Positions 39,337-64,000 of a stretch of 64,000 nucleotides of DNA are shown piece after piece. Below the pieces are notes generated by a model. That model was not told where the DNA came from. It did no database searches and saw only the letters and a list, made by a program, of their open reading frames with translations. The translations under genes were made by a program, and so were the position numbers. Source of the stretch: a virus; IMG/VR virus record IMGVR_UViG_3300047470_000115, positions 15,488 through 79,487 of that record. One strand, 5' to 3'. Numbering within the stretch: position 1 is the stretch's first letter; the number at the start of each line of letters is the position of its first letter.

Positions 39337-42213
39337 TTATGACAGAAGCCTCTCGCGAAGTTTCTCGGAGACGAGATGAACATCCTGCGGACCGCTGACG
39401 ACCACCGTATCAAGGCCATACGCCGAAGGGCTATCCGTGTTAATGCCCACACCCACGAGGTGAATTCCGGCAGCCTTGCACAGTTCGATGTTGTCCGTGA
39501 GGATATCCAGTTCCTCGTTGTAGTTGGCTTGCGGCATGCGGCCGTCAGTGAAGTAGAAGAATACCTTGTCGGTCGCTCGAATCCCCTGCATCTGCTTACG
39601 GTAGAACTCGAGCGTATGTCCGTCGAGGTTCTCCGAGTCCGGGCCGAGAGTCGACACGGCCTCACGCGCACGAGCACTCCACGGCTCATTGAACGGCTTA
39701 CACTCGTACATGTTCGCAACGAGCTTCGTGTCGTACGTCATGACAGGCTGACGGCTACGTCCGCGCCCCTGCCACTGCCTCCACTGCCACTGCGCCGAGT
39801 GACCCCAGACTGCGAACTTGACACCAGGCAGGGCGTTCATCGCATCAGCCATGACCAGGGCACACTGCTTGAGTAGCAGGAGGTTTATGCCGGTCGTGCT
39901 GGCCGACAGGTCAATGCCCATACCAACTGCATACTCGCGCTTAGCGGGACGCTGCTTCTTCTGGAAGACGCGATCGTCTCCGAAGGGGACGCGTCGCGCC
40001 AGCATCGAGCCTGCAATGTCGCCAGTCTTGCGGTTTCGAACCTGACTCGACCTTTTATTGAAGTCGAAGATCGGCCTGACCGCACCAATGAAACGACTGA
40101 TGTCCGCAATGCTCGGCTCGAATGCACCCTCGATGCCGAGCTGCGCATTGTTGTAGTTCGCAAGCGACCGATAAGGCTCGTAGGCATGCGTCCAGGCGAG
40201 TGCTGCATCTCGACCGTTCTCGTCGAGTGCATGTCGATCTGGGCGTGAAATCAACAGGCCAGTGACATCTCGACGGACAACGTCGAAGGCCATGATCTGG
40301 GAATCTGCTGTTCCCATCTCCTCTTCGAGTGTCTTGATCTGCTCTGGACTGACGGTGTCCTTGCTGGCCGTAGCCTGGTGGGCGAACTGCTCGAAGCCCT
40401 TCTCTAGATCTTCCGGCGTGCCGTACTCGCTCGGATCGATCTGCTGCGGCTGGCGGTCTAGAGGCTCATCACCCTTCTCGTCAAGGTTCTCGCGATCGAA
40501 GTCCTCGTCCTCGTCGCCATCCCACGGACTGTCTTCGGAGTCGTCGTCGCCCTGCTCTGTCGAGTCGGAAGCCTCACCATCAGCCTCGCCGTCAACTTCA
40601 CCGTCAGAGTCGTCATCAGAGTCACCGTCACCCTCGCCTTCGCCAGAGCCGGTGCCGCCCGATCCACTTCCGCCATCGGGCGCCTCGTCCTCTCCGTCAC
40701 CGTCCCCGGTATCGGGCGTGACTGATGAAGAGGAGTCGTCGTCCCCGTCCTCCGAGCCATCCTGGGCCGGTTCCCCGCCACCGTCCGACGATTCCGAATC
40801 GTCGCCTTCACCCTCAGATTCCTCGCCTGTGCCGCCAGGGCCACCAGAGTCCGACTCCTTGTCGGCATCTTCGGCGTCTCCCTGACCGCTACCCTCGTCG
40901 GCGTCGTCGCCGCCTTCATCCTCGTCGGACTCATCCGACCCCTGGCCGCCGTCAGCGTCGTCGCCCTCGTCGGAGTTCGACTCATCATCCTGCTGGTCAG
41001 TACCACCAGACGAGTCAGACTCCTCGGCATCTTCCGACTCCTCGTCGGACTCGCCATCACTCTGGCCGCCGTCGGAGTCGGAATCCGAGTCAGACTCTTC
41101 TTGCCCGTCGTTGTCACCAGAGTCTTCGTCGGAATCCTCGTCGGACGAGTCATCGGACTCTTCGAACTGAATTTCAGTCTGTTCGCCAGGTCCAGCCGAG
41201 TCGTCCGGCTCGCTGTCGTCCTCATCCTTCGGCTCGGGCTGCGGCTGGGGCTCGCCGTCCTGGTCGTCCTCGTCCTCGTCCTCGCTGTCCTGCTCCGGGA
41301 AGAACCCGAGCTCCTGCGCGATAGACAGGAAGTCCTGTGATGCATGGAAGGCGTCGCGAACGGTCCTCATGCCGCCTTCGAGCGACCTCGCGAACTCCTG
41401 CATGACGGGATTCTCGATCGCCTCTACGACCGGCTCGCTGTACGCAGTTGGCACAAACGAATCCAGCACCAGGTTATAGAACGCGACCACGAGCTGGACG
41501 TTGAGGGGCTGACCCCTGAAGGGCATCCACACCTTCTCGCCCTCGTCACCCTCGATCATCTCGCCGCCGGACTCCTGGCGACGGATAATGTCAGCGCGAC
41601 GCACGCGAGCTGAACCAGGGCGAACCTTACCCATCTTCAGGTCGACGCGCACATCTTCCATGATGTTGACGATCGCCGGAAGATACGGCGACGAGACGGC
41701 TGCGACAGTCATCCAGTCGGGCGACCGCATCAGTGCCTCGCGGAGCTTCTCACCCGTAGCCTGATCGACCTTTCCGGTCGAGATCATGCGACGGATGGCA
41801 GACATGATGTCAGCATCCTTAGCGGGCTCGAAAGTATTGTGTGCTACGTGCGAGATCTCGTGAACCATGCGGGACATAACGAGATCGTTGATAGCGCAGC
41901 GCCTGCACCTCGACTCGCCATAGGAGGTCCGAAGATCACAGAAGTTCGGCTGGTGCGAACCGGCCTTGCCGAGGGCGAGAGGCGGACGCACGTAGATGTC
42001 CTGGTTGTCGGTCCAAGACTTGTCCCATGTCAGCCGCACTCGAAGTGAAGGCCGCTTAGTGACTACCCTCGCGAACGACTCAAGCATCGGACGCATGGCT
42101 GCGAACTCCTGCGCCGTCTGTCGAACCAACTCGCGCAGGGCGTGATTCGCCATGTCCTGCGTATCGACTGCAACCTCAAGGGGATCTCCCCCCTCGTACA
42201 CACTGCTAACCAT
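39337..42213 (-). CDS. CobT-like VWA protein: HExxH N-terminal domain, ~290-aa Asp/Glu/Gly/Ser linker, C-terminal VWA
   Basis: HEISH and NIMEDVRV in the N-terminal domain; DLSAS MIDAS motif; FTDGRMP; VGVGI. Confidence 0.9.
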   Translation of the reverse strand: MVSSVYEGGDPLEVAVDTQDMANHALRELVRQTAQEFAAMRPMLESFARVVTKRPSLRVRLTWDKSWTDNQDIYVRPPLALGKAGSHQPNFCDLRTSYGESRCRRCAINDLVMSRMVHEISHVAHNTFEPAKDADIMSAIRRMISTGKVDQATGEKLREALMRSPDWMTVAAVSSPYLPAIVNIMEDVRVDLKMGKVRPGSARVRRADIIRRQESGGEMIEGDEGEKVWMPFRGQPLNVQLVVAFYNLVLDSFVPTAYSEPVVEAIENPVMQEFARSLEGGMRTVRDAFHASQDFLSIAQELGFFPEQDSEDEDEDDQDGEPQPQPEPKDEDDSEPDDSAGPGEQTEIQFEESDDSSDEDSDEDSGDNDGQEESDSDSDSDGGQSDGESDEESEDAEESDSSGGTDQQDDESNSDEGDDADGGQGSDESDEDEGGDDADEGSGQGDAEDADKESDSGGPGGTGEESEGEGDDSESSDGGGEPAQDGSEDGDDDSSSSVTPDTGDGDGEDEAPDGGSGSGGTGSGEGEGDGDSDDDSDGEVDGEADGEASDSTEQGDDDSEDSPWDGDEDEDFDRENLDEKGDEPLDRQPQQIDPSEYGTPEDLEKGFEQFAHQATASKDTVSPEQIKTLEEEMGTADSQIMAFDVVRRDVTGLLISRPDRHALDENGRDAALAWTHAYEPYRSLANYNNAQLGIEGAFEPSIADISRFIGAVRPIFDFNKRSSQVRNRKTGDIAGSMLARRVPFGDDRVFQKKQRPAKREYAVGMGIDLSASTTGINLLLLKQCALVMADAMNALPGVKFAVWGHSAQWQWRQWQGRGRSRQPVMTYDTKLVANMYECKPFNEPWSARAREAVSTLGPDSENLDGHTLEFYRKQMQGIRATDKVFFYFTDGRMPQANYNEELDILTDNIELCKAAGIHLVGVGINTDSPSAYGLDTVVVSGPQDVHLVSEKLRERLLS

Positions 42214-43238: not shown

Positions 43239-44846
43239 TCAGCCGACGCGCGTTTTGACCGTTCCGCGTACCAAGTCGCGTTCGCGCGGGTCGAGGAAGT
43301 TGACCAGCGCGATGTCGTACGCCTTAGTGAGCGGCCAGATGCGAGACAGCTTCGCCACCTTGATGCTGTGACGGACACCCCATGAAGTCGTGATCGAGTG
43401 ATTGGCGGCGAGGCCACGCAGATCTTCGGCGATCCCGACGATCTGATCGAGCGTCTCCTCGCCGATCTTCCAGCCGATGTCAGGGTCGTCGGCCCACTCG
43501 CGCAGAATCTCGCGCTCGATATCGAACGGCGGATAGTCCACAGCGAGGTGCGCGAGACGAGAACTGTCTGCGTCGGCGATCATGTCAGCGCCCACGTTAC
43601 GTGTATCCCAGGCAGGGTTCATCGCCAGGGCGAACACCGAGTCGGGATGGCGCTCGATGATCTCGCCAGCGTTCTTGTCGATGACGAACTGCTTCGAGTT
43701 GTCCGTGAGTGGACGCACCGCCTGCCAGACCTCGACCGGCCCCACGTTGGGCTCGTCAAGGCAGATGACACCGGGCGACTGCCACGCACGAGGGAGGCGA
43801 CCGTGGGCGAACTTGGTCGCGTTGTCCTGCAGGGTGAACTGGCCGACCAGTTCCTCGACCTCGGTGCTGGCCGTGATGCTGATCCGATGGAACGGCAACT
43901 GCATCAGCCACGCCATGTGTCGCAGGACTTCGGTCTTGCCGACACCTGCCGGACCCCACAGGGCGGGCGTCTCGTCCATCTCCCACCACAGGGCGGCGAG
44001 CATGAACACAAGGCCCAGGTAGTCGATGAAGTTCTCGGGGTGCTCGTCGTCGCCAGTGGTCGGTACCAGAGCCTGCAGGTTCTTGGGGAATCGCGCCTTG
44101 TCGTAGACCGGAATGAACACCGAGGCTCCAGTGTCATGGTCAACGATCTCACGCCATGCCCTTATGCCGCGATCCTTGTCCTCGACACTCAGGGTGCGAT
44201 CCGTCGGATACTGTGACGGATCGACGAAGTTGACACGCTCCGACTTCCACCGCTCCAAGGGTGTCATCATCTTGAAGTACGCGTCAACGAGCTCGGGGAT
44301 GAGCCGCATCTGACCGTCCATCTGACGATTGTGCACCGGCGTACCGCCGTAGCGCATCAGGCGAACAGCCGACCCGCACCGCTGCGACTTCTCGGCGACC
44401 TGCCCCTGAAAGACCAGCTCGTTGCGTGAGCTGCAAATGCCGGTCCCCCGCCAGCCGAGACGAACCGTCTCGGCCCTGTTGTAGAAGATGCACTCCGTAC
44501 AGGTCTCGACCTTCGGGATTCCATCGTTCTCGTCATCCTCCCCGAGCATGACCTGTGCCGCAACAGCCTCCCTACTCGGGAGCGTGACAGGCGGATTCAC
44601 CTTCGACCAAGTCACAGTCGACGGACGGGGCAAGCCGTACTCCTGGCACTTCCCCGCCGTCGCCTTGCGGAGTCCGTCGGCCTGCCTCGGATGCATCTCT
44701 TCACGTCCGAGAATGTACCCGAACCTTGCGCAGTGGTCCATGCCGGTTCGAGTTCCGAAAAGCTTCTCGGACTCGGGACCGTCAGGAACGAACGAAGGGC
44801 ACCCTACGCAAGAGCGCTTCTTCTCGCCGACAGCCTCGGTTGTCAT
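43239..44846 (-). CDS. MoxR/CobS/CbbQ-like AAA+ ATPase with Cys-rich N-terminal extension
   Basis: Walker A GPAGVGKT, Walker B ICLDEPN, AMNP sensor; two CxxCxx(F/Y) modules at the N-terminus. Confidence 0.9.
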   Translation of the reverse strand: MTTEAVGEKKRSCVGCPSFVPDGPESEKLFGTRTGMDHCARFGYILGREEMHPRQADGLRKATAGKCQEYGLPRPSTVTWSKVNPPVTLPSREAVAAQVMLGEDDENDGIPKVETCTECIFYNRAETVRLGWRGTGICSSRNELVFQGQVAEKSQRCGSAVRLMRYGGTPVHNRQMDGQMRLIPELVDAYFKMMTPLERWKSERVNFVDPSQYPTDRTLSVEDKDRGIRAWREIVDHDTGASVFIPVYDKARFPKNLQALVPTTGDDEHPENFIDYLGLVFMLAALWWEMDETPALWGPAGVGKTEVLRHMAWLMQLPFHRISITASTEVEELVGQFTLQDNATKFAHGRLPRAWQSPGVICLDEPNVGPVEVWQAVRPLTDNSKQFVIDKNAGEIIERHPDSVFALAMNPAWDTRNVGADMIADADSSRLAHLAVDYPPFDIEREILREWADDPDIGWKIGEETLDQIVGIAEDLRGLAANHSITTSWGVRHSIKVAKLSRIWPLTKAYDIALVNFLDPRERDLVRGTVKTRVG

Positions 44847-44858
44847 CCCGCACACCCC

Positions 44859-47097: not shown

Positions 47098-47319
47098 CAG
47101 TTAGGGTACCCTAACCTAGCGCTGACGATTTGTCGACATGTCGCTACTCGCCCGGAGTGGCCATACTCAGATCAAGTTTGGCGCGGATGTTGTGATAGTT
47201 GGTCTCGTCACTCTCCGACCAGTCGCCGTCGTCAGAGTACTTCTGGCGGTGCGCGTCAAGCGCCTCCAGGACCAACGCATACTCGCCTTCAGTGAATTGC
47301 ATACTTGACCTTCCCCGGT

Positions 47320-47445
47320 AAGTAAAAACAAGGCGCTAGGGCGCTGCGCCGCAACCCAGAACTCAGGGCCACCCGAGTCTGGTTACCGGTCCAACCCGTT
47401 CAGGAAGACCGTGCGGCGCAGCTTCCTAGCGCCTTGTGTTTCGTT
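47320..47445 (-). ncRNA. candidate small regulatory RNA (~125 nt, three-way junction)
   Basis: Own promoter at 47451-47479; 13-bp plus 11-bp closing stems, two inner hairpins, U-tail at 47324-47328; no credible ORF. Confidence 0.7.
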
Positions 47446-55394: not shown

Positions 55395-56045
55395 CTACTT
55401 GCTGCTCTTCCAATCCATGTAAACCTGGCGAAGGGTCTTGCCGTCCTCCGTCTTCCAGGTGTCGTACGGGTTACTGACCGTACCTCGAATGAACCGCGCC
55501 AGGCTACTCGGCGAATAGGCAGGCTCGCTCAACGGCGTACCGTCATCCGAGATCATGCGCCACGAGATGGACGACCAGGCATCATCGCAGGTGAACTCGA
55601 TGATGACGGCGAGGTTCTTACGCTTGAACACGTCATAGAAACGCATCCCGTCACGCAAGATGCCTGCCTTGGCCATCGCGAAGATGTCAGACCGGGTCGG
55701 CGTACTCCCCGTGGTGTACGAGGAGCGACTCGGCATGTCTGCCAGCTCGCGAACAATGCTGATCGTAGGACGATCAGGCAGTGACTTCGCCCTACCGGCA
55801 TAGTCAACCGCCTCCTCCTCCAGGTTCTCGTGCAACGCCTGCACGGTAGCCCAAAGGTCACGCCCCGACCAGCCTGCACCTTCTTCGATACCCGGATAGG
55901 TCGACAGGTACTCCCGCGCAGCCTCGCATAGGACAACGAACAGTGTCTCGTCAACACTGTCGAATTCCTGACTACCCTCGCGAAACAGTCGCGCGGCGAG
56001 GTTCGCAACCTCTTCGCGAACCTCGCCCCTCTTTTCGGGTTCCAA
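55395..56045 (-). CDS. hypothetical protein (C-terminus RAMA-like DNA-binding)
   Basis: AGGAGG RBS; AGILRDG...SPSSLA....NPYDTWK..DGKTL resembles the RAMA domain pattern. Confidence 0.6.
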   Translation of the reverse strand: MEPEKRGEVREEVANLAARLFREGSQEFDSVDETLFVVLCEAAREYLSTYPGIEEGAGWSGRDLWATVQALHENLEEEAVDYAGRAKSLPDRPTISIVRELADMPSRSSYTTGSTPTRSDIFAMAKAGILRDGMRFYDVFKRKNLAVIIEFTCDDAWSSISWRMISDDGTPLSEPAYSPSSLARFIRGTVSNPYDTWKTEDGKTLRQVYMDWKSSK

Positions 56046-56119
56046 GGTGCCTCCTAGCGTTGCCCCGATGTTCTAGGTACATCATATCACATCGGGGCCG
56101 AACTTGGTAACTGAGTGTT

Positions 56120-56668
56120 TCAAGCGGCGAGGAGTTCTCCGTGCACGTTATCGGAGTTCCACTCTCGCTCCGTGGCGAGCTGCTTGGAGTAGAACCTGAT
56201 GAACGGGTACGTGTCGCCCCGGAAGATGGAAACCTTCCACTCCATGCCGGACTCCAGCTCCGTAAAGTACACGGTGAACTGATTCATGGCGTGACGAGTC
56301 CACCGGTCCAGGCGGATGCGCGTCTGCGTGAGGCGGTAGCCCTCGGCGATGGACTTCTTCGCCTTGCCCTTCGCCATGATCCAGATGGTCAGCGCCCACA
56401 TGGGCAGCGTGTCGTAGCTGGTGCCCTCGGTGGCGTAGCCGAGCGACTCGACCTCCGCCTTCCTGCAGCACTCGTAGTAACCGTAGTGCGAGTGGGCGAA
56501 CCTCGTGATGGCACCCTGCTTGCGAGCCACCAACTTGCACGATCCCCAGCCGACGATCTCCGTCCAGGTGGACGTGATCCGACCCGCGAGCGCGTCCCGC
56601 TTGATGTACGGGAGGAACGCCTCGGGGATGTCTGCCTTCTTCACCGGAACCATCAGGCCCTGACTCAT
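56120..56668 (-). CDS. hypothetical protein
   Basis: AGGGGG RBS; strong GC3 bias. Confidence 0.75.
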   Translation of the reverse strand: MSQGLMVPVKKADIPEAFLPYIKRDALAGRITSTWTEIVGWGSCKLVARKQGAITRFAHSHYGYYECCRKAEVESLGYATEGTSYDTLPMWALTIWIMAKGKAKKSIAEGYRLTQTRIRLDRWTRHAMNQFTVYFTELESGMEWKVSIFRGDTYPFIRFYSKQLATEREWNSDNVHGELLAA

Positions 56669-56720
56669 TGTGCCCCCTACGTGTACTGGATGTCAAGTCG
56701 TGAACCGTCGCGTAAAGTCG

Positions 56721-56757
56721 TGAGGCCCTTGGGGGTAGCCATCCCCCAAGGGCCTCA
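56721..56757 (-). terminator. hairpin terminator
   Basis: tgaggcccttggggg/cccccaagggcctca. Confidence 0.75.
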
Positions 56758-56775
56758 TCACTCAACGTGAAGGTG

Positions 56776-57159
56776 TTACCGATTTACTCCAGGTCCCATG
56801 AGCTCCCAGACTGCGATCCTGTCATCCTCACATAGGTCATCGACCATGACCCAGGCGAGCGCACCATTCTGGACGATCTGCACGCACGTGACCAGGACGG
56901 GCGACCACTCGAGCATATACGCTCGAGTCCTGCTACCCGCGAGAACCTGAATCGCGCCCTCGTGGTGTTCGAGGTACATGACCATGAACGCATCGAGACT
57001 GTACTGGTCGGGGTCGGTAATGCGGACCTCGTCCTTGACTTGCCAGGTCGGACCCTCGATCACCAGACGACTGTATATCGACGAAGGCGACTCCGTCAAG
57101 CGGAAGTCCTTCCGAAGTTCAGCTCGAACCCACTTCGGACCTTCGGGAACCTCAACCAC
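56776..57159 (-). CDS. hypothetical protein
   Basis: GAGG RBS; bounded by hairpins. Confidence 0.65.
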   Translation of the reverse strand: MVEVPEGPKWVRAELRKDFRLTESPSSIYSRLVIEGPTWQVKDEVRITDPDQYSLDAFMVMYLEHHEGAIQVLAGSRTRAYMLEWSPVLVTCVQIVQNGALAWVMVDDLCEDDRIAVWELMGPGVNR

Positions 57160-57191
57160 ACTGCCTCACTTTCATCAGGTCTACACAAGCA

Positions 57192-57234
57192 GCCGTACGC
57201 CCACACTAGCACTAGGCTGGTGTGGGCGTACGGC
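57192..57234 (-). terminator. hairpin terminator
   Basis: gccgtacgcccacac/gtgtgggcgtacggc. Confidence 0.75.
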
Positions 57235-57270
57235 AAACGGCACAGATTGGCCACGTAGCGGCACAACCCT

Positions 57271-57393
57271 CTAATCCTGGTAAGTCCCGTCACAGTCGAT
57301 GTGACGGCAACGCGAGCCCTTGCTGTTGAGGCCACCCGAACTGTGCTGCTCCGGGTCGGGCACCTCGTCGGCACACTTGTTACACGTGAGCAT
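57271..57393 (-). CDS. 40-aa Zn-ribbon peptide (not in the ORF track)
   Basis: AGGAGG RBS; MLTCNKCADEVPDPEQHSSGGLNSKGSRCRHIDCDGTYQD. Confidence 0.6.
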   Translation of the reverse strand: MLTCNKCADEVPDPEQHSSGGLNSKGSRCRHIDCDGTYQD

Positions 57394-57401
57394 AGCGCCT
57401 C

Positions 57402-58025
57402 CTAGCACTTGCATTCAAGCGTGAACGGACTTGGTACGACCTTGCAGTCCGGGCATGCCCGACGAAGGTTGGGCCGCTCGACCGCACGCTCACTGTACGC
57501 GCCTGCCGTAAGGGGGCGCTGGTCGCCGATGAGATAGACCTTGCGATCGGCTACCTCCTGGGACGACGGCGGACGCCAGATATCCTGGATGCCGTGATCA
57601 TCCCACGAGATGACCGACATCTCACCCTCGTCGTGATCATCGAGGGTGGGCTCGCGGACGAACTCATCCTCGTCGTCAGGGTCCGAATCGATCCCGACTG
57701 GATCGATTATAGAGGACCAAGTCGACCTGATCAACCCGCCGTGATTGGTGAGGTGCCATACCTCATCCGGCGCCTTGTCGGGCTCGGGTATGTCACGCGA
57801 CAGCCACATCAGGTACATGGCTGACATGTCAGCACCGTTGAATGCCTCGATCGGCGTCAACTGCCCCGGTACCTTCGAGCCAGGGTAATGCACTCGACTG
57901 TACTGCTTGCGGGCACGAGACTTCAACGTCTGCGCGGGGTTCTCCGCGTTGCGGAAGTGCTCCCACTCTTCGGCCTGTGATCCGTTGACCACGGATCGCA
58001 CAAACTTACCCCAGTAGTGCGCCAC
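57402..58025 (-). CDS. hypothetical protein
   Basis: GGGGAG RBS; C-terminal CPDC...ECKC. Confidence 0.65.
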   Translation of the reverse strand: MAHYWGKFVRSVVNGSQAEEWEHFRNAENPAQTLKSRARKQYSRVHYPGSKVPGQLTPIEAFNGADMSAMYLMWLSRDIPEPDKAPDEVWHLTNHGGLIRSTWSSIIDPVGIDSDPDDEDEFVREPTLDDHDEGEMSVISWDDHGIQDIWRPPSSQEVADRKVYLIGDQRPLTAGAYSERAVERPNLRRACPDCKVVPSPFTLECKC

Positions 58026-58216
58026 TACTTACTCCCCGCCCCACGGTACCTCTTGATCCGACGGCACGCGGCCCAGTACGTAACCTTACCGAGCCGTACT
58101 CCGTAGACCATAGCTGCCCACGACCCGAAGAACAACCCCGTCATCCGGAATGTTATCTCCCAGTAGCCTGCATCAGGCGCACCCGTGATCCACGCGATCA
58201 GGTTTACGATGCTCAC
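58025..58216 (-). CDS. small membrane protein
   Basis: Hydrophobic segment; coupled to neighbours. Confidence 0.55.
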   Translation of the reverse strand: MSIVNLIAWITGAPDAGYWEITFRMTGLFFGSWAAMVYGVRLGKVTYWAACRRIKRYRGAGSK

Positions 58217-58464
58217 GTGCGATCACTCGCCTTGGCGAGGCTGACACCAGGCCCGCCGAACGCTCGGTTGTGGTGTCCGACCAGCTCGACGTCACGCATG
58301 AGAACTCCCAGACCCACGTAGCCCTTGCGATACAGGGCTTCGAGCCTACCGATCTTCCCCGGCTTGCACAGCATGCACAGGTGTTCGGTATTGGTGGGCA
58401 TCAACACGCTGACCTTCGCGGCCGACCTGATCCCTACGCCCAAGTCTACCAGGCGGGGGCTCAC
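58213..58464 (-). CDS. hypothetical protein
   Basis: GTGA overlaps on both sides. Confidence 0.55.
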   Translation of the reverse strand: MSPRLVDLGVGIRSAAKVSVLMPTNTEHLCMLCKPGKIGRLEALYRKGYVGLGVLMRDVELVGHHNRAFGGPGVSLAKASDRT

Positions 58465-59603
58465 GCCGCAACCGCCAGGGCACCCTGGGCGTACTTGGCG
58501 CGCTGCATGTTCAACTCGAAGAACTCGAGCATTCCGCTCACCTGCTGCCGTGTCGGCTCGGTGATGCCCTGCTTGGCGAGGATCTCACGTGCCAGGGTAC
58601 GCAGACGACGACGCTCGGCGAGGGCTTCCTCGCGGGCAGGGTCAGGTGCGGACTCCACCACCTTACGCGCCGCACGCTCACCGGCACGCGCCGCCTTCGA
58701 GAGTTCACGCTGTTCGCGCTTGTCCGCCCGGAGGTCAGCCTTATCCGCCTTGCGCTGCGCGGAGTTCTGCTGCTTCTCGAACTTCTCGGCGCTCACCACC
58801 TGGGCGAGGCGACGGATGCCGGGCAGGCCGTTGGCACGAGCGTACTCGACCGGGGTCTGTCCGTCAAGGCGGCGGAACTCCTCCACCTCCACGGACACGG
58901 CCAGGCCCTGCCTGTTGCGGTACTGCCGCGTGACGGTCGCACGGGTGACCTCACAGTCAGCCATGTCAGTTGTCCTCATCACACGGCCGAGACCGTCGCG
59001 GAATACACCCCTAGCGGCATCATCCACGTCTCGCTGTGCGCCCGTCTGGTACGCGAGGTAACCCTGCGACCTGTCCGCATCATACGCCACCTGCTCGGCG
59101 TGTGAACGCGTAACGGTCTTGGCCGTCTCACTGGCCATGGCGTTACGGTCAGGCATGTCGGACGACCAGTGCGGCTTGAGGACCGCACGGCTGGCCGCGC
59201 TGGTGTCACGTGAACTGGGATCAGTCCAGTCACCAGGGTTGCCCGGGATGTAGTCCCTGAACGGGGTCAGGCGGTAGCCCTTGGGGCGAGACACCTTACC
59301 CTTCGGGGGCATGACCTGCACACTGCCCGTGTTGAACTTCGGCACGTCACCCGGACGAGTGGCGCCAATGGCGACCTCGATCGGGGAGGTGTTGCCCGTG
59401 ATCAGGGACGCACCACGCTGGGCGGCACGCTTCCTGGCGGACTTGCTGGACCCCGCACGGTGTGCGAGAGCGGTGGCTTTGCGGCTGTCCGCCTCGGCAA
59501 CCAGCTCCACGCGGAGGGCTGCCAACTTGGACATGGTCGGGTCGGTCTTCGAGCCCGGCGTACTGCGTACGGCCTGGGCCCGACGCCTGGCGGCGCTGGA
59601 CAT
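58461..59603 (-). CDS. basic Arg/Lys/Ala-rich putative early protein
   Basis: First gene after a consensus promoter; GGGAG RBS. Confidence 0.75.
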   Translation of the reverse strand: MSSAARRRAQAVRSTPGSKTDPTMSKLAALRVELVAEADSRKATALAHRAGSSKSARKRAAQRGASLITGNTSPIEVAIGATRPGDVPKFNTGSVQVMPPKGKVSRPKGYRLTPFRDYIPGNPGDWTDPSSRDTSAASRAVLKPHWSSDMPDRNAMASETAKTVTRSHAEQVAYDADRSQGYLAYQTGAQRDVDDAARGVFRDGLGRVMRTTDMADCEVTRATVTRQYRNRQGLAVSVEVEEFRRLDGQTPVEYARANGLPGIRRLAQVVSAEKFEKQQNSAQRKADKADLRADKREQRELSKAARAGERAARKVVESAPDPAREEALAERRRLRTLAREILAKQGITEPTRQQVSGMLEFFELNMQRAKYAQGALAVAA

Positions 59604-59635
59604 GTGAGCTCCCGTGGCTAGCGGGTGAACGGGTT
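59601..59635 (-). promoter_or_regulatory. conserved 5'-leader element, copy 1 (AACCCGUUCA plus RBS hairpin)
   Basis: 31/35 identical to 60332-60366. Confidence 0.8.
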
Positions 59636-59659
59636 AGGTGGTGCGAAGTGCTGTGCAAC

Positions 59660-59688
59660 AGTCTAGCGAACTGGGTGGGCGGTGTCAA
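59660..59688 (-). promoter_or_regulatory. consensus promoter TTGACA-N17-TAGACT
   Basis: Exact -35, 17-bp spacer, HrdB-type -10. Confidence 0.85.
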
Positions 59689-59743
59689 CACCAGGTGATG
59701 CTTGGTGGTGGCGCCGCATACCCAGCATACCAGGCTGGGTGGT

Positions 59744-59772
59744 GCGTGGCCAGGTGTGGGGCCTGGCCACGC
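59744..59772 (-). terminator. hairpin after the 59789-60334 gene
   Basis: gcgtggccagg/cctggccacgc. Confidence 0.6.
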
Positions 59773-59788
59773 TATCCCGTGGGGGAGG

Positions 59789-60334
59789 TCAGGCCTTGGC
59801 GAGGCTGACACCGGTGGCGCTGTTCCGCGCATCGGCCAGCATCAGGTACAGGTAGCTCTTGGAGATCAGGCCCTCGCCGTACTGCCGATCGGCCTCGTTG
59901 GCGTGCTGGGCCGCCTCGCGCTGCTTCCTACGGCGACCGAGTCGACCGACCTCGGTGACGATAGCACGGAACTTGACCTCGGTCATCCGGCCCCGACGAA
60001 ACAGGCTCTCCGCCCGAACGATGGGGGTCACGGTCAGGCCGGTCCAGTTCTGGGTGGCACTGTTCGAACCTACGGGCACCGGGTCCGTGATGCGGCCCTG
60101 GGCACGGAGGTGCTCCTCGCTGGGCTGCTCCTCGGGGTACAGGTCGGACACGATGCTGACCCGCATGTACAGACTGGTGGTGAGGTACTCGGCGCAGGGG
60201 ACGCACACGTTGTACTCGTGCGTCGACTGATTCTCGCCGGAGGTCTCGCCCATGAATTCCGAGACACGGAACCTGGCGAACGGGATGACGGTGTTGCCCT
60301 GGTGGGCAAGGGTGTCCTCGCAAAGGGACTTCAT
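59789..60334 (-). CDS. hypothetical putative early protein (first leftward gene)
   Basis: AGGAG RBS; GC3 bias. Confidence 0.7.
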   Translation of the reverse strand: MKSLCEDTLAHQGNTVIPFARFRVSEFMGETSGENQSTHEYNVCVPCAEYLTTSLYMRVSIVSDLYPEEQPSEEHLRAQGRITDPVPVGSNSATQNWTGLTVTPIVRAESLFRRGRMTEVKFRAIVTEVGRLGRRRKQREAAQHANEADRQYGEGLISKSYLYLMLADARNSATGVSLAKA

Positions 60335-60366
60335 GTTTGCTCCTGTGGCTAGCAGGTGAACGGGTT
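60332..60366 (-). promoter_or_regulatory. conserved 5'-leader element, copy 2
   Basis: See copy 1; compensatory C-G to U-A change in the stem. Confidence 0.8.
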
Positions 60367-60369
60367 GAC

Positions 60370-62620
60370 ACTGACGCTATCGGATTGGACCAGGTTTAGC
60401 AACCTGGCCCGCTTCCCATAGGTCAGGGAAGGGCACTTTCGGCTTTGCGTTACCGGCGCTCGCCCGTTTCCGGGGTCTACGGCTCGACGACAAGTCGGGC
60501 CTTGGCGCGGGCTTGGGGGAGAACCCAAGCCTTTTCGTTCGCCTAATCGTGTGGTGCGTTGCTACCAGTCTAGCACACCTTGCCGGGGCTGGTCGCCCCC
60601 ACCGACAGGTGGACGTGCAGGTCTACGGTACTGCACCCCCCATATGGGCGGGGCTGGTGTTGCTAGTCCGACTGTAGCACGTTCGGCTGGGGCCTCGTAC
60701 CCCCCATGTGTTGAACGCGTAATGCCAGGCTAACGGCTTACCTATGCGCGGCCCACACGCTAGGACAGGTAGCACCGGTACGGAACCTGGCGTGACATAC
60801 CTACCCCTACATATAGGCGCCGCCAGGTATCGACTCCCTAGCTACGTCCTACGTTGGAGGGCCCTACTCCCCGCGCCTAATGGTGCGGTGTGGGACCGGC
60901 GCCTGGTGGGGGGATAGAACCCCCATCGGGCTGTGCCCAGTCTAGCACAGGTGCACTGGGTGGAACCCCGTGCGGACTGTGCGGGTTGGGCCTCACTACT
61001 ACGTGCGCCGTGCTGGCCGTGCGTTGTGGTGACGGGGTCGACTATTCCGCAAACGGACCAAGATCGCAACACCTTGTATGTAACGGAATGGTAACGCAGA
61101 ATCGGACTTGTTGGGGCACATTGCCGATAACACGGATTATCGGCATGTGGTGAAATTCATACAGAATGGGATCAGTCGCAACGTACCATAGCAAATTAGG
61201 ACATAAGGGTACGTATAGGTACTTATCGATCGCCGGCATTGAGGCAGACATATCGGACAAATGGTGGGATAAGTAAAATAACGGGCGGGGGGGTATGCGC
61301 GGCGCCTTTATGCAGGTCCGATGCATATCAACTTTTACGAGGTAAGAATGTATTCTGGACCTAACCCCGACTAAAAAACGCCAGTCATTTCGCTGTCCGC
61401 GAAAATAACCGCAGGTCAATGGGGGTTTGGGGGTCGGACGCCAGCGAAATAGCGGTCGTACTTAGCCTAGGAAATCGACGTCTTTTGCTACAGAAATCGC
61501 TGATTAATCCGAAAGAATGCATCGATTGCAGCCAGGATGCACCCACATGGGTGCCAGCTAGACGTCGAATGGCAAAAGAATCCGCTTTCGGACGTAAAGA
61601 CGCCCCCTAACTGTAGATATTCGCGAAACGGACATTTCCAAAGTCTCCTATGTCGTCGACACCTTTTACCAATTTTGCAATCAAGGTGCACCCGTCATGG
61701 GTGACCTGCCCTCTGTTTTCGGACGCCCTGGCTCGATGTCGGTACACCTCGCCGTCCGCTTTCACGTAGCGTGATGGAGCGGCGCGCAAAGCGGGTCCGA
61801 AGTCGCACCCACATGGGCGGGAGTCGGTTTAGTTATCACTCAAAAGATTCCCAAATCCGACAGATTGCCGTTTTGGCGTCAGCGAAATCAGCGAAATTGT
61901 CAGCACAAATAACCGCAGGTCAACCCCTATATGGGAGTGGTTTAAGCAATTTCGCTTACACCCCCCCCCCCCCCCCTTTCTCTGTTTGTCACTCACCGTT
62001 ACCCGGCACCCCACCCATGGGTGCGTCACCGTGCGTGCCTGGGGGTCCCCGGGGGGTCGGCCAAGCGTCAGCACAAATAATTCTGACCTGCGGTTTTGTA
62101 CGGCCACACCCCGTTTGGCGTGCGCATATTTTCGCGTACGGGGCCGTCAGCGCTATCAGCAGAATGACTGGTCTAATTCGGACATTCGGGTGACGATTAT
62201 CGTGATTCTGCAACAAGGCGTCCGTCCGCGGTTTCGCTGAACGTAGCCTTGCGTAGCACTGCATCTCACGCTCCGTATACACTGCTACGCCTTTTCGACT
62301 ACGCGGTACCCAGAATTTCCACGAGTCGTCCGTCATAGCCAGCCTTCGTGTCGAAATCCAGCATTCTGCATAGCGTGACGGGTATTTCTGGTGTCATCTC
62401 TGACGGTCCGTCAGATCCGTACATGATCAAATGTTAGATGTACCTTCAACCCACCGACAAAGTCGTTCCGCTGACGCTCAAAGTCGTATTCGCGGCCAAA
62501 AACTTGCACAAGAATCTAGCCCGGCGCCGTCCGCGCAATTCGCTGACCTGCGGAAACGTCCGTCAGCGGAATTGTTTGCCCCGTTATGTCCTATGTGCAA
62601 GTCGTGCACATACTTGGGCT
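60370..62620. other. large non-coding divergence region with several repeat families (candidate origin or genome-end/packaging region)
   Basis: No ORF with phage-like codon bias; AT-richer core; repeats CCGCAGGTCA, CCCAYATGGG and TCAGCRMAAT; C16 tract. Confidence 0.65.
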
Positions 62621-62622
62621 AT

Positions 62623-62651
62623 TTGGCAATTATCGCCCATGGTGCTAACAT
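62623..62651 (+). promoter_or_regulatory. promoter TTGGCA-N17-TAACAT (extended TG)
   Basis: 35 nt upstream of the 62686 start. Confidence 0.65.
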
Positions 62652-62685
62652 TCTGCATATTCACACTCGAAGAAGGGGGAACTGG

Positions 62686-63084
62686 ATGGCGAACGAAGAA
62701 GCCACGTCAGAGAACTTCATTCAGAGGGCTGTCGAGGCTCTCATGGGCGGGGCCAACAATGAGGCTTTCAGCGTACTGACGGATGGTGAACTGTTCGGCT
62801 TCGGTATCGCGCTGATCGCGGTGGAGCGCGGTCACACTGTCGCTCGCGCCTCCTGGGGAAATCCCGGCAAGTACGTGTTCCTTCAGGCCGGGGAGGAGAT
62901 GTTCGACCCCGAGACGCATCAGCCTGCGCCACTCAAGCAGCATCTCGTCTGGAAGAACGACAGGGGCGAGTTCATCCCCTGGACTCCGTCGCAGGATGCT
63001 GTGCTGGCGCGTGACTGGTTCATCGGAAAGTCCGGTGACTATCCTTACGGCAGGTTCCCGGCTGCAGAGCCGATCCAGAACTGA
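62686..63084 (+). CDS. DUF2829 family protein (Tad2-like anti-defence signal sponge)
   Basis: FGIAL...G..VAR..W....YVFL...WTPSQDAVLARDW matches the DUF2829 pattern; AGGGGG RBS. Confidence 0.85.
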   Translation: MANEEATSENFIQRAVEALMGGANNEAFSVLTDGELFGFGIALIAVERGHTVARASWGNPGKYVFLQAGEEMFDPETHQPAPLKQHLVWKNDRGEFIPWTPSQDAVLARDWFIGKSGDYPYGRFPAAEPIQN

Positions 63085-63254
63085 TGATGGGGCCCGAGGC
63101 ACATCTCGTCTGGAAGTGCCCACACGAGATGTGTGCATCAGAGCAGCTCGGCGACATGGATTCGCCGTACGATGAGTACAGGTGTGTTACGCACCAGGTG
63201 GATCTCGTGCTGAGTGATCGTGTCATTCACGCGCCGGACGGTCGGGGTATGTAG
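63084..63254 (+). CDS. small Cys/His protein (56 aa, not in the ORF track)
   Basis: TGATG-coupled to the DUF2829 gene; WKCPHEMC...RCVTH. Confidence 0.5.
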   Translation: MMGPEAHLVWKCPHEMCASEQLGDMDSPYDEYRCVTHQVDLVLSDRVIHAPDGRGM

Positions 63255-63359
63255 CCCCGACACGGCACACAGTGGCCCCGTCCTGCCATCCTCTCCGGCT
63301 CCGCACACACGGACCGGGGCGGGGGCGGAGCGGGGCCACGTTCCTACTTAGGGGGCAAA

Positions 63360-63572
63360 ATGAAGTATCATGCCATCTGGTACAGCTCGGCAAACAAGGT
63401 GCGCATCTTCGAGGTCGACGAGGCAGGCAATGAGGAAGTTCTCCATGAAGAAAGTGCTCATGACCACCAGGTCGCTGCCGAGTTCGTCAAAGAGCAGGGC
63501 TTCGGCTTCACTGACCTCTGGGTGCACGACTCGAAAACATTTAACTATCAGGCACCCCTCAAGGCCATGTAG
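63360..63572 (+). CDS. hypothetical protein
   Basis: AGGGGG RBS; acidic 70 aa. Confidence 0.65.
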   Translation: MKYHAIWYSSANKVRIFEVDEAGNEEVLHEESAHDHQVAAEFVKEQGFGFTDLWVHDSKTFNYQAPLKAM

Positions 63573-63625
63573 CGCAAACTTCCCCCCCGTGAAACAAGTA
63601 TCTTGGTAACTACGCGCCGAATGGC

Positions 63626-63655
63626 TAGACACGCACCGCGCACGCACGCTAGCGT
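63626..63655 (+). promoter_or_regulatory. possible promoter TAGACA-N18-TAGCGT
   Basis: Directly upstream of the structured region. Confidence 0.5.
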
Positions 63656-63661
63656 GTGAGT

Positions 63662-64000
63662 TGTTGCACAGCTGGTGTTGAAGGACAGCAGAGGTGTTGC
63701 GCCCCGTTGGGTCCGGCCTTGACCCTCGTAGCTTGCCAACGCCCCACGTTGCAGGCGCGAGGTGCCAAATCCCCCCCTGCCGCCTCGCGAGTGTCGAGGC
63801 CGGACCCGCCCCCAACTTAATAAGCAAGGCTGCGCGGTGCTGAGGTGCCGCTGGGGAGTGTCATGTCTCGTTCCGCGCAGCCTGATACCCCCTCCGCTAC
63901 CTCTAGGTAGCCAGTTGTATCGCAGGAAAGTCGTCCGGCCGACACTCCACCTGCGACGCGAGGGGAAAGAGCGAAGGCCCGACACCTAGCCTGCAGGTGT
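63662..64000 (+). ncRNA. candidate large structured RNA (may continue beyond the window)
   Basis: Successive nested stems with G-U pairs that work only on the + strand; no credible ORF. Confidence 0.55.

Follow-up and report, generated by a model that had tools for sequence, protein, structure and literature searches.

Conserved sequences associated with start codons have been known in actinophages since 2011 (PMC3203893). They include the start-associated sequences (SAS) and their extended form (ESAS), which are found in Cluster K mycobacteriophages and in Cluster EF Microbacterium phages (PMC3203893, PMC7302621). The SAS is a 13-bp motif, GGGATAGGAGCCC or GGGAAAGGACCCC with at most two departures, that lies 3-7 bp before the start codon, mostly ATG, and occurs in 10-19 copies per genome in front of different gene families of the non-structural half (PMC3203893, PMC7302621). 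ESAS elements lie just upstream of the SAS and consist of imperfect inverted repeats of 17 bp that are separated by 4-13 bp, and both RNA-level and DNA-level roles have been discussed for the two sequences (PMC3203893, PMC7302621). The present analysis concerns a 35-nt leader that is repeated before two unrelated genes in a 64,000-nt stretch, hereafter the window, of an uncultivated virus (bases 15488-79487 of the 79,487-bp IMG/VR record IMGVR_UViG_3300047470_000115). To our knowledge, the mechanism of the actinophage start-associated sequences has never been settled.

Other phage systems act at comparable positions. The c4 antisense RNA of phages P1 and P7 carries loops that pair with two short, separated sites of the icd-ant leader, one of which is the ribosome-binding site, and blocks the translation of early or antirepressor functions. 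The coat-replicase hairpin of MS2 and PP7 and the sites recognised by T4 RegA are translational operators of phage proteins, and RegA acts on several early mRNAs. In mosaic phages, short conserved blocks at gene boundaries flank unrelated cassettes and could guide homologous exchange. The stoperators of Cluster A mycobacteriophages, cited in PMC3203893, are asymmetric 13-bp sites that number in the dozens and to which the immunity repressor binds.

Read on the minus strand, positions 59635..59601 (AACCCGTTCACCCGCTAGCCACGGGAGCTCACATG, leader A) and 60366..60332 (AACCCGTTCACCTGCTAGCCACAGGAGCAAACATG, leader B) are identical at 31 of 35 positions. The likeness ends at the ATG, and the flanks upstream of the element are unrelated. 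Sequence comparison therefore bears out the claim of the initial annotation that the match precedes two unrelated genes and stops at the start codon. Both leaders share a 10-nt 5′ part and a 7-nt loop, CTAGCCA, without any difference, and in both of them GGAG is followed by 5 nt and then by ATG. The parts of the two leaders are as follows.

59601..59635, minus strand: leader A, preceding the AUG (59603..59601) of the 380-aa gene P0001
59635..59626, minus strand: 5′ box of leader A, AACCCGUUCA
59625..59622 and 59614..59611, minus strand: stem arms of leader A
59621..59615, minus strand: loop of leader A, CUAGCCA
59613..59609, minus strand: Shine-Dalgarno sequence of leader A, GGGAG, with a 5-nt spacer to the AUG
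60332..60366, minus strand: leader B, laid out as leader A, preceding the AUG (60334..60332) of the 181-aa gene P0002
60356..60353 and 60345..60342, minus strand: stem arms of leader B, CCUG and CAGG
60344..60340, minus strand: Shine-Dalgarno sequence of leader B, AGGAG

The four differences between A and B fall at element positions 13 (C/T), 23 (G/A), 29 (T/A) and 30 (C/A). Positions 29 and 30 are adjacent bases of the spacer between the Shine-Dalgarno sequence and the AUG, and positions 13 and 23 pair with each other in the CCYG-N7-CRGG inverted repeat. The compensatory change from C-G to U-A around an invariant 7-nt loop, as noted initially, is thus real, with the correction that it represents a single event. 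In the window, the 27-nt core is present in exactly two copies (0.00 expected, 100 shuffles), and the whole 79,487-bp genome likewise contains exactly two, so that the search for further copies suggested in the initial annotation returned the two known leaders and no others. No weaker third copy stands before any of the 80 modelled gene starts.

Other identities of the leader were considered and rejected. Copy A has an in-frame TAA at its boundary and copy B an in-frame TAG upstream, with no intervening start codon, which contradicts a coding N-terminal extension; a promoter for a leaderless mRNA would need a TANNNT at the proper distance, and none is found; and an integron attC-like site does not fit, the core sites being wrong and an integron integrase absent.

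Both leaders lie shortly downstream of promoter-like sites, from which their transcription would start.

59660..59688, minus strand: promoter-like site A, TTGACA-17-TAGACT (near-consensus), whose -10 ends 24 nt upstream of leader A
60374..60402, minus strand: promoter-like site B, TTGCTA-17-TAGCGT (weaker), read from the sequence and not among the sites listed by the promoter scan

The gap between the -10 of site A and leader A is 17 nt in a natural variant of about 97% identity. The -10 of site B ends 7 nt before leader B, in which case the element would start at about +1; a rival candidate start, marked by an extended -10 (TGCTAGACT, 60574..60566, minus strand), lies about 190 nt upstream of leader B. 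A 13-nt motif, TGTGCTAGACTGG, which resembles the -10 of promoter A and can be read as an extended -10 (TGcTAGACT), is found twice on the minus strand, at 60565-60577 and 60938-60950. The first of these copies could give P0002 a structured leader of about 190 nt (fold z -3.1). While the distance from the leader to the ATG is fixed, the distance to the promoter varies, which fits a role in translation or at the mRNA level better than a promoter-linked one.

Altogether, the reading we prefer, at a probability of roughly 40%, is that the duplicated 5′-leader module is a shared mRNA-level recognition site for two unrelated early genes. Three features favour it, namely that the core is long, that the change within it preserves the pair and that its spacing from the ATG is constant. 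Indeed, the conserved 27 nt far exceed what a Shine-Dalgarno sequence needs, and their only two differences keep the stem. The module is made up of the linear box AACCCGUUCA, a small CCYG-CUAGCCA-CRGG hairpin with a 3′ arm that extends into the Shine-Dalgarno sequence, 5 nt and the AUG. Duplication or recombination of a gene-boundary module would have placed it before both genes, where it would have been kept as a common recognition site subjecting them to the same post-transcriptional control. Selection on the element, and any trans-acting factor that reads it, are suppositions of this model. The hairpin would provide the handle for such a factor, for which the sole candidate seen in the genome is a 124-nt RNA that may pair with the box and the Shine-Dalgarno sequence.

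The hairpin itself is weak, with a stem energy of -5.2 kcal/mol in leader A and -3.7 kcal/mol in leader B. Either single change alone weakens the leader A stem, from -5.2 to -3.0 or -2.3 kcal/mol. In a chance simulation that counted a pair-preserving double change in any helix of at least 4 bp, such a pair arose in 1.4-1.8% of cases with two substitutions in the 27-nt core and in 5-6% with four substitutions in the 32-nt leader. The energy needed to open the Shine-Dalgarno window was computed for the 80 modelled genes (median 5.6 kcal/mol) and amounts to 6.2 kcal/mol for leader A (rank 31 of 80) and 2.4 kcal/mol for leader B (rank 77 of 80, among the most open), the two sites being no more closed than the other 78. 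The initial annotation had proposed a selected RNA structure that sequesters the ribosome-binding site. What stands of this proposal is that both copies can form the stem and that the double change keeps it; the fold is weak, however, and the minimum-energy fold of leader A is another stem, CCCGU/ACGGG, which is impossible in leader B. Sequestration is not borne out, given the weak stem, folding z-scores of about 0 and the openness of site B. A hairpin that hides the Shine-Dalgarno sequence unaided, limiting translation until it melts, is for the same reasons the least probable of the explanations considered, even though the 3′ arm overlaps the Shine-Dalgarno sequence and the double change preserves the stem. 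The element alone does not hide the ribosome site; the hairpin, if it matters, is a shape recognised by something else. Since it is too weak to hide the site, it would rather serve as a handle for a trans-acting factor. A search of 56000-64000 against Rfam 15 gave no relevant match at E <= 1.

The two genes behind the leaders are the first two of the leftward early block, and they would accordingly be expressed early. Together with the repeated blocks at their ends, they form two units.

59789..60334, minus strand: P0002, 181 aa, behind leader B, an ORFan family
58461..59603, minus strand: P0001, 380 aa, behind leader A, an ORFan family found in metagenomes only
58213..58464, minus strand: P0022, an 83-aa open reading frame with a GTGA start/stop overlap with P0001, ending in ...GPGVSLAKASDRT
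59793..59812, minus strand: 20-nt block, copy 1, encoding GVSLAKA at the 3′ end of P0002 and bracketing unit 1 together with leader B
58229..58248, minus strand: 20-nt block, copy 2, near the 3′ end of P0022 and bracketing unit 2 (P0001 and P0022) together with leader A
59741..59769, minus strand: 11-bp G+C-rich hairpin without a U-tail, after the P0002 stop and between the units, a possible terminator separating them

P0001 and P0002 are unrelated to each other (BLASTP E 5.5), and neither has a match in Pfam or PHROG. In both cases the start codon is supported by homologues in which conservation sets in at the first residues. The N-terminus of P0001 is basic and arginine-rich. The P0002 family has invariant residues C5, H11, H39, C44 and C47, which are zinc-finger-like, and a conserved C-terminal GVSLAKA. 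The N-terminal module of P0002, of about 60 aa, holds these invariant cysteines and histidines, and two distant homologues (L003 and L004) join it to a different cysteine-rich C-terminal domain; on this account the module is a mobile zinc-finger-like domain. The P0022 family is conserved in three metagenome relatives. Predicted models were too poor for a fold search, with a predicted local distance difference test (pLDDT) score of 59 for P0002 and 66 for P0001.

The 20-nt direct repeat is identical at 20 of 20 positions, whereas about 0.003 such repeats are expected per genome. The units P0002 and P0001-P0022 are thus alike in their 5′ block, in their 3′ block and in the order of the two, and unrelated in the DNA between them. 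With all 20 bases identical, the two units have probably been subject to duplication, exchange or gene conversion, and it is most likely by such a duplication or exchange that the leader reached the second gene. The GVSLAKA motif is conserved in both the P0002 and the P0022 families, and the repeat may be the mark of gene conversion or else a peptide signal that the two proteins share at their C-termini. No contig in four metagenome runs spans a joint across either repeat pair.

Relatives of the locus come from metagenomes. The natural variant of about 97% identity is a 19.5-kb Logan contig covering all of 59000-60900. Among the differences listed for it, none falls in leader A and one, at 60336 in the spacer, falls in leader B, while the flanks are altered by a 7-nt deletion (59641-59647), substitutions at 60368 and 60376 and a cluster of changes at 59699-59707. 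The deletion moves promoter A nearer to leader A, and promoter B of the variant, with -35 TTGCCA and -10 TAGTGT, is still promoter-like. A 151-nt contig of about 90% identity also aligns over leader B. Both proteins have metagenome homologues, including some of 54-89% identity (P0003-P0007, P0008-P0012, P0024 and P0025). Of these, P0003 and P0024 are encoded together on a 15.9-kb JGI contig and P0004 on one of 53.7 kb, and two of the metagenome runs contain contigs about 90-94% identical to the locus.

Broader searches returned little. Megablast, blastn and tblastn searches of 50,697 phage records gave no match to the region or to either protein, and IMG/VR protein scans gave no relative with P0001, P0002, the neighbouring AAA protein and two family alignments as queries. 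Scanning IMG/VR DNA with the core as a pattern gave 0 matches; one relaxed-pattern match (L012) lies within a coding region (...EEINPFTRMGEEQA) and is thus due to chance. In 185,579 GTDB genomes there is a single match, inside a permease gene of Desulfobulbus; chance alone would yield about 1, and this match too is ascribed to it. The GTDB protein scan found no homologue. The metagenome protein scan found just two distant homologues of the N-terminal domain, L003 and L004, both of which are without the element.

The candidate trans-acting RNA is encoded some distance away from the leaders.

47322..47445, minus strand: candidate 124-nt structured RNA, with promoter-like site TTGTGT-17-TATCAT, a Y-shaped fold and a U-run

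Its fold has an energy of -78.5 kcal/mol, as against -45 kcal/mol for shuffles (z = -8.65), and Rfam holds no match above chance for the region. The loop of its first inner hairpin, CUUCCUGAACGGGUUGGAC, spans 47407..47389 and includes a seed for AACCCGUUCA at 47402..47393; within it, UGAACGGGUU is complementary at every base to the 5′ box that both leaders carry. The CUUCC of the same loop can pair with GGGAG or GGAG over 4-5 bp, with the leader hairpin looped out. In this arrangement, a single 17-nt RNA loop would join an anti-Shine-Dalgarno CUUCC to a 10-12-nt address, UGAACGGGUUGG, and bridge the leader hairpin. Pairing was scored over the 80 ribosome sites by a calculation restricted to the loop and including opening energies. 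The two leaders form perfect Watson-Crick runs of up to 10 and 11 nt with the loop, and none of the other 78 sites exceeds 7 nt. The initial annotation had also proposed recognition by an sRNA or an RNA-binding protein; for this one candidate RNA, the pairing is an outlier among ribosome sites in seed length, not in energy, does not exceed chance when energy and accessibility are taken into account, and constitutes a testable lead rather than support. That this phage RNA silences both first early genes in trans, as a c4-like temporal or immunity switch whose two-gene regulon is the duplicated leader, is a doubtful proposition. Directly after the RNA come a Shine-Dalgarno sequence and a 52-aa acidic open reading frame (47302..47144).

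Several results weigh against the leader being a recognition site on the mRNA. Folding z-scores against shuffles range from -0.2 to +0.8, i.e., about 0, for the 35-mers and for longer contexts. The compensatory change is suggestive, yet one event in two sequences is thin evidence, and a symmetric site on double-stranded DNA would give the same pattern of double change. In the variant of about 97% identity, about 2 changes are expected in the 54 core bases and 0 are seen (P about 0.13), so that the absence of change is not significant and is weak evidence of constraint. L003 and L004, whose domains are about 45% identical to the N-terminal domain of P0002, are preceded by an ordinary short junction from which the element is absent. 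The element is apparently absent at 58% identity as well, as the over-extended open reading frame (P0004) of the 58% homologue of P0002 has ...KSPAPRVM upstream, a sequence that the leader translated in frame would not give. Its absence in relatives at 45-58% protein identity implies that the element is young or short-lived. The RNA partner adds its own difficulties. With accessibility included, its interaction energy is -5.9 kcal/mol for leader A (rank 1 of 80, nearly tied with the second) and -2.4 kcal/mol for leader B (rank 16 of 80), about 1.3% of random windows pair as well, and 61 genome sites equal or surpass it in raw duplex energy. Somewhere in the genome, a 10-mer antisense to one part or another of the element is also to be expected by chance; only its location in an exposed loop of a structured RNA is unusual.

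A functionless relic ranks close behind the recognition site, with a DNA operator in third place. According to the former, which we consider rather unlikely, the leader was copied with a gene cassette at conserved boundaries and is now an ordinary ribosome-binding site, the change in the stem being coincidental. The similar bracketing of the units, by the 35-nt block on the 5′ side and the perfect 20-nt block on the 3′ side, speaks for it, as do the presence of merely two copies on adjacent genes, the lack of the element in more distant homologues, a weak hairpin with ordinary or open ribosome sites, and a compensatory pair that chance would produce in up to 6% of cases. It is less easy to reconcile with an element boundary lying exactly at the ATG, or with a 27-nt core that is intact save for a pair-preserving change, whereas 2 of the 5 spacer bases differ. 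The variant of about 97% identity likewise alters the flanks and not the core, though not significantly so, and the four metagenome runs contain no contig joining the repeat pairs. A DNA operator or roadblock, at which a protein bound to the double-stranded element would shut off transcription of both genes in the manner of Cluster A stoperators or the conserved inverted repeats of phiC31, is distinctly less probable. Both copies lie just downstream of promoter-like sites in the same orientation, the CCYG-N7-CRGG dyad with its symmetric change in the half-sites suits a dimer site equally well, and the integrase of the phage leads one to expect a repressor. The authors who described the ESAS preferred DNA binding for its inverted repeats (PMC3203893). 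However, the distance to the -10 varies (7 versus 24 nt, and 17 nt in the variant) where that to the ATG is fixed, the dyad has just 4 bp per arm, there are only two sites, and no DNA-binding protein was identified next to the element; the nearby non-coding region, moreover, has a different repeated motif of its own (61394-61419, 61898-61923 and 62084-62102).

The leader might also be an RNA site for antitermination of the nut/put kind, or a site of RNase processing or mRNA stability, both of which we regard as very improbable. Two copies of a box plus hairpin behind two early promoters do recall nutL and nutR of phage lambda, a hairpin without a U-tail stands between the units, and the N-terminus of P0001 is arginine-rich, which is not diagnostic. 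Unlike nut and put sites, however, the element is fixed to the Shine-Dalgarno sequence and the ATG. A lambda-type nut site combines a boxA-like sequence and a boxB hairpin with an N-like, arginine-rich antiterminator; no boxA consensus is seen in the leader, Pfam and PHROG gave no match related to N, Q or Nus, and Rfam gave none.

The DNA upstream of leader B is largely non-coding over about 2 kb and contains repeated motifs of its own and a rightward Tad2-like gene. This gene, at 62431-63084 on the plus strand, encodes 217 aa with a domain resembling Tad2 (Thoeris anti-defence 2, PF11195; E 5.9e-17) and is the sole clear rightward gene in the 3.6 kb or so between the early block and the genome end. 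A sequence beginning with TTGACCTGCGGTTATTT occurs in three copies within an AT-richer non-coding stretch, two direct (61394-61419 and 61898-61923, minus strand) and one inverted (62084-62102, plus strand), and these look like the repeated promoters or operators of a regulatory region. At least 5 small palindromic hairpins of the CACCCAUGUGGGUG type are scattered over non-coding DNA at about 60635-62020 (minus strand). The same region has a stretch of some 20 G near 61955-61975, possibly an artefact of the assembly.

The record is rated complete by CheckV and has a G+C content of 59.7%. A 132-bp direct terminal repeat, at 63869-64000 of the window (genome 79356-79487) and again at genome 1-132, reflects genuine terminal redundancy, or else the two ends overlap because the assembly is circular. 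Late genes run rightward and include a 2087-aa open reading frame of tape-measure size; the leftward block encodes an SNF2 helicase, a PD-(D/E)XK nuclease, CobT-like VWA and AAA_5 proteins, a tyrosine integrase and a TPR protein. In this replication arm, the CobT-like VWA protein (958 aa) and the AAA_5/MoxR-like ATPase (538 aa) are encoded on the minus strand at 39337-42213 and 43239-44855, respectively. Among isolates, Gordonia and Rhodococcus phages come closest, with SNF2 helicases that are only about 33% identical, and for this reason the host is probably an actinobacterium; the virus itself is probably an actinophage-like, temperate siphovirus. Its DNA is present in soil and rhizosphere metagenomes from several studies, and no RNA dataset is among the runs listed as containing it.

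The two-copy leader offers a minimal system: a single box, small hairpin and compensatory change before two unrelated genes, and a single candidate RNA partner in the same genome. Should it prove functional, it could help to decide between RNA-level and DNA-level action of start-associated elements; should it be the scar of a recombination event, the leader and the 20-nt 3′ repeat would record the joining of cassettes exactly at start codons in mosaic phages. Either outcome would be of modest import.

Compared with the systems considered at the outset, the locus shares with the boundary sequences of mosaic phages the conserved blocks at the 5′ and 3′ ends of both units. It differs in that both copies stand in tandem in one genome, the Logan contigs over 59000-60900 showing no alternative cassette arrangement. 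Like stoperators, the leaders are asymmetric sites in one orientation, in transcribed regions near gene starts and downstream of promoters; in contrast to stoperators, the leaders number two, measure 27-35 nt and keep a constant distance to the ATG, and no repressor was identified. With the operators of MS2, PP7 and RegA, the leader has in common a short hairpin or sequence that overlaps the ribosome site and would act as a protein handle, not as a stable block. It has, however, neither a predicted binding protein nor any similarity to those operators in sequence or structure. If read by the 124-nt RNA, it would resemble the target of c4, in that the loop of a structured phage RNA is predicted to be complementary to the leader box over 10-11 nt and to the Shine-Dalgarno sequence over 4-5 bp. 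Here, in contrast to c4, the candidate RNA is encoded 12 kb away, behind a promoter-like site of its own, a single loop would serve both sites across a looped-out hairpin, and two mRNAs would be targeted.

The likeness to SAS and ESAS is one of position and arrangement: the leader covers the ribosome-binding site near the ATG of unrelated non-structural genes, in one orientation, with an additional conserved part upstream. The SAS motif GGGAWAGGASCCC, with up to 2 mismatches, has 2 matches in the window (35169 and 60911) versus 5.1 expected, neither of them at the element, and the leader is present in two copies, not in 10-19. In place of the 17-bp repeats of the ESAS, it has a 10-nt linear box and a 4-bp inverted repeat with a 7-nt spacer. 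Its one stem change is compensatory, whereas the departures seen in the ESAS do not support pairing. Because motif, copy number and inverted repeat all differ, the leader is like SAS and ESAS in kind but not a member of either. The repeat is real and specific, and it is a distinct element of a kind similar to these start-associated sequences.

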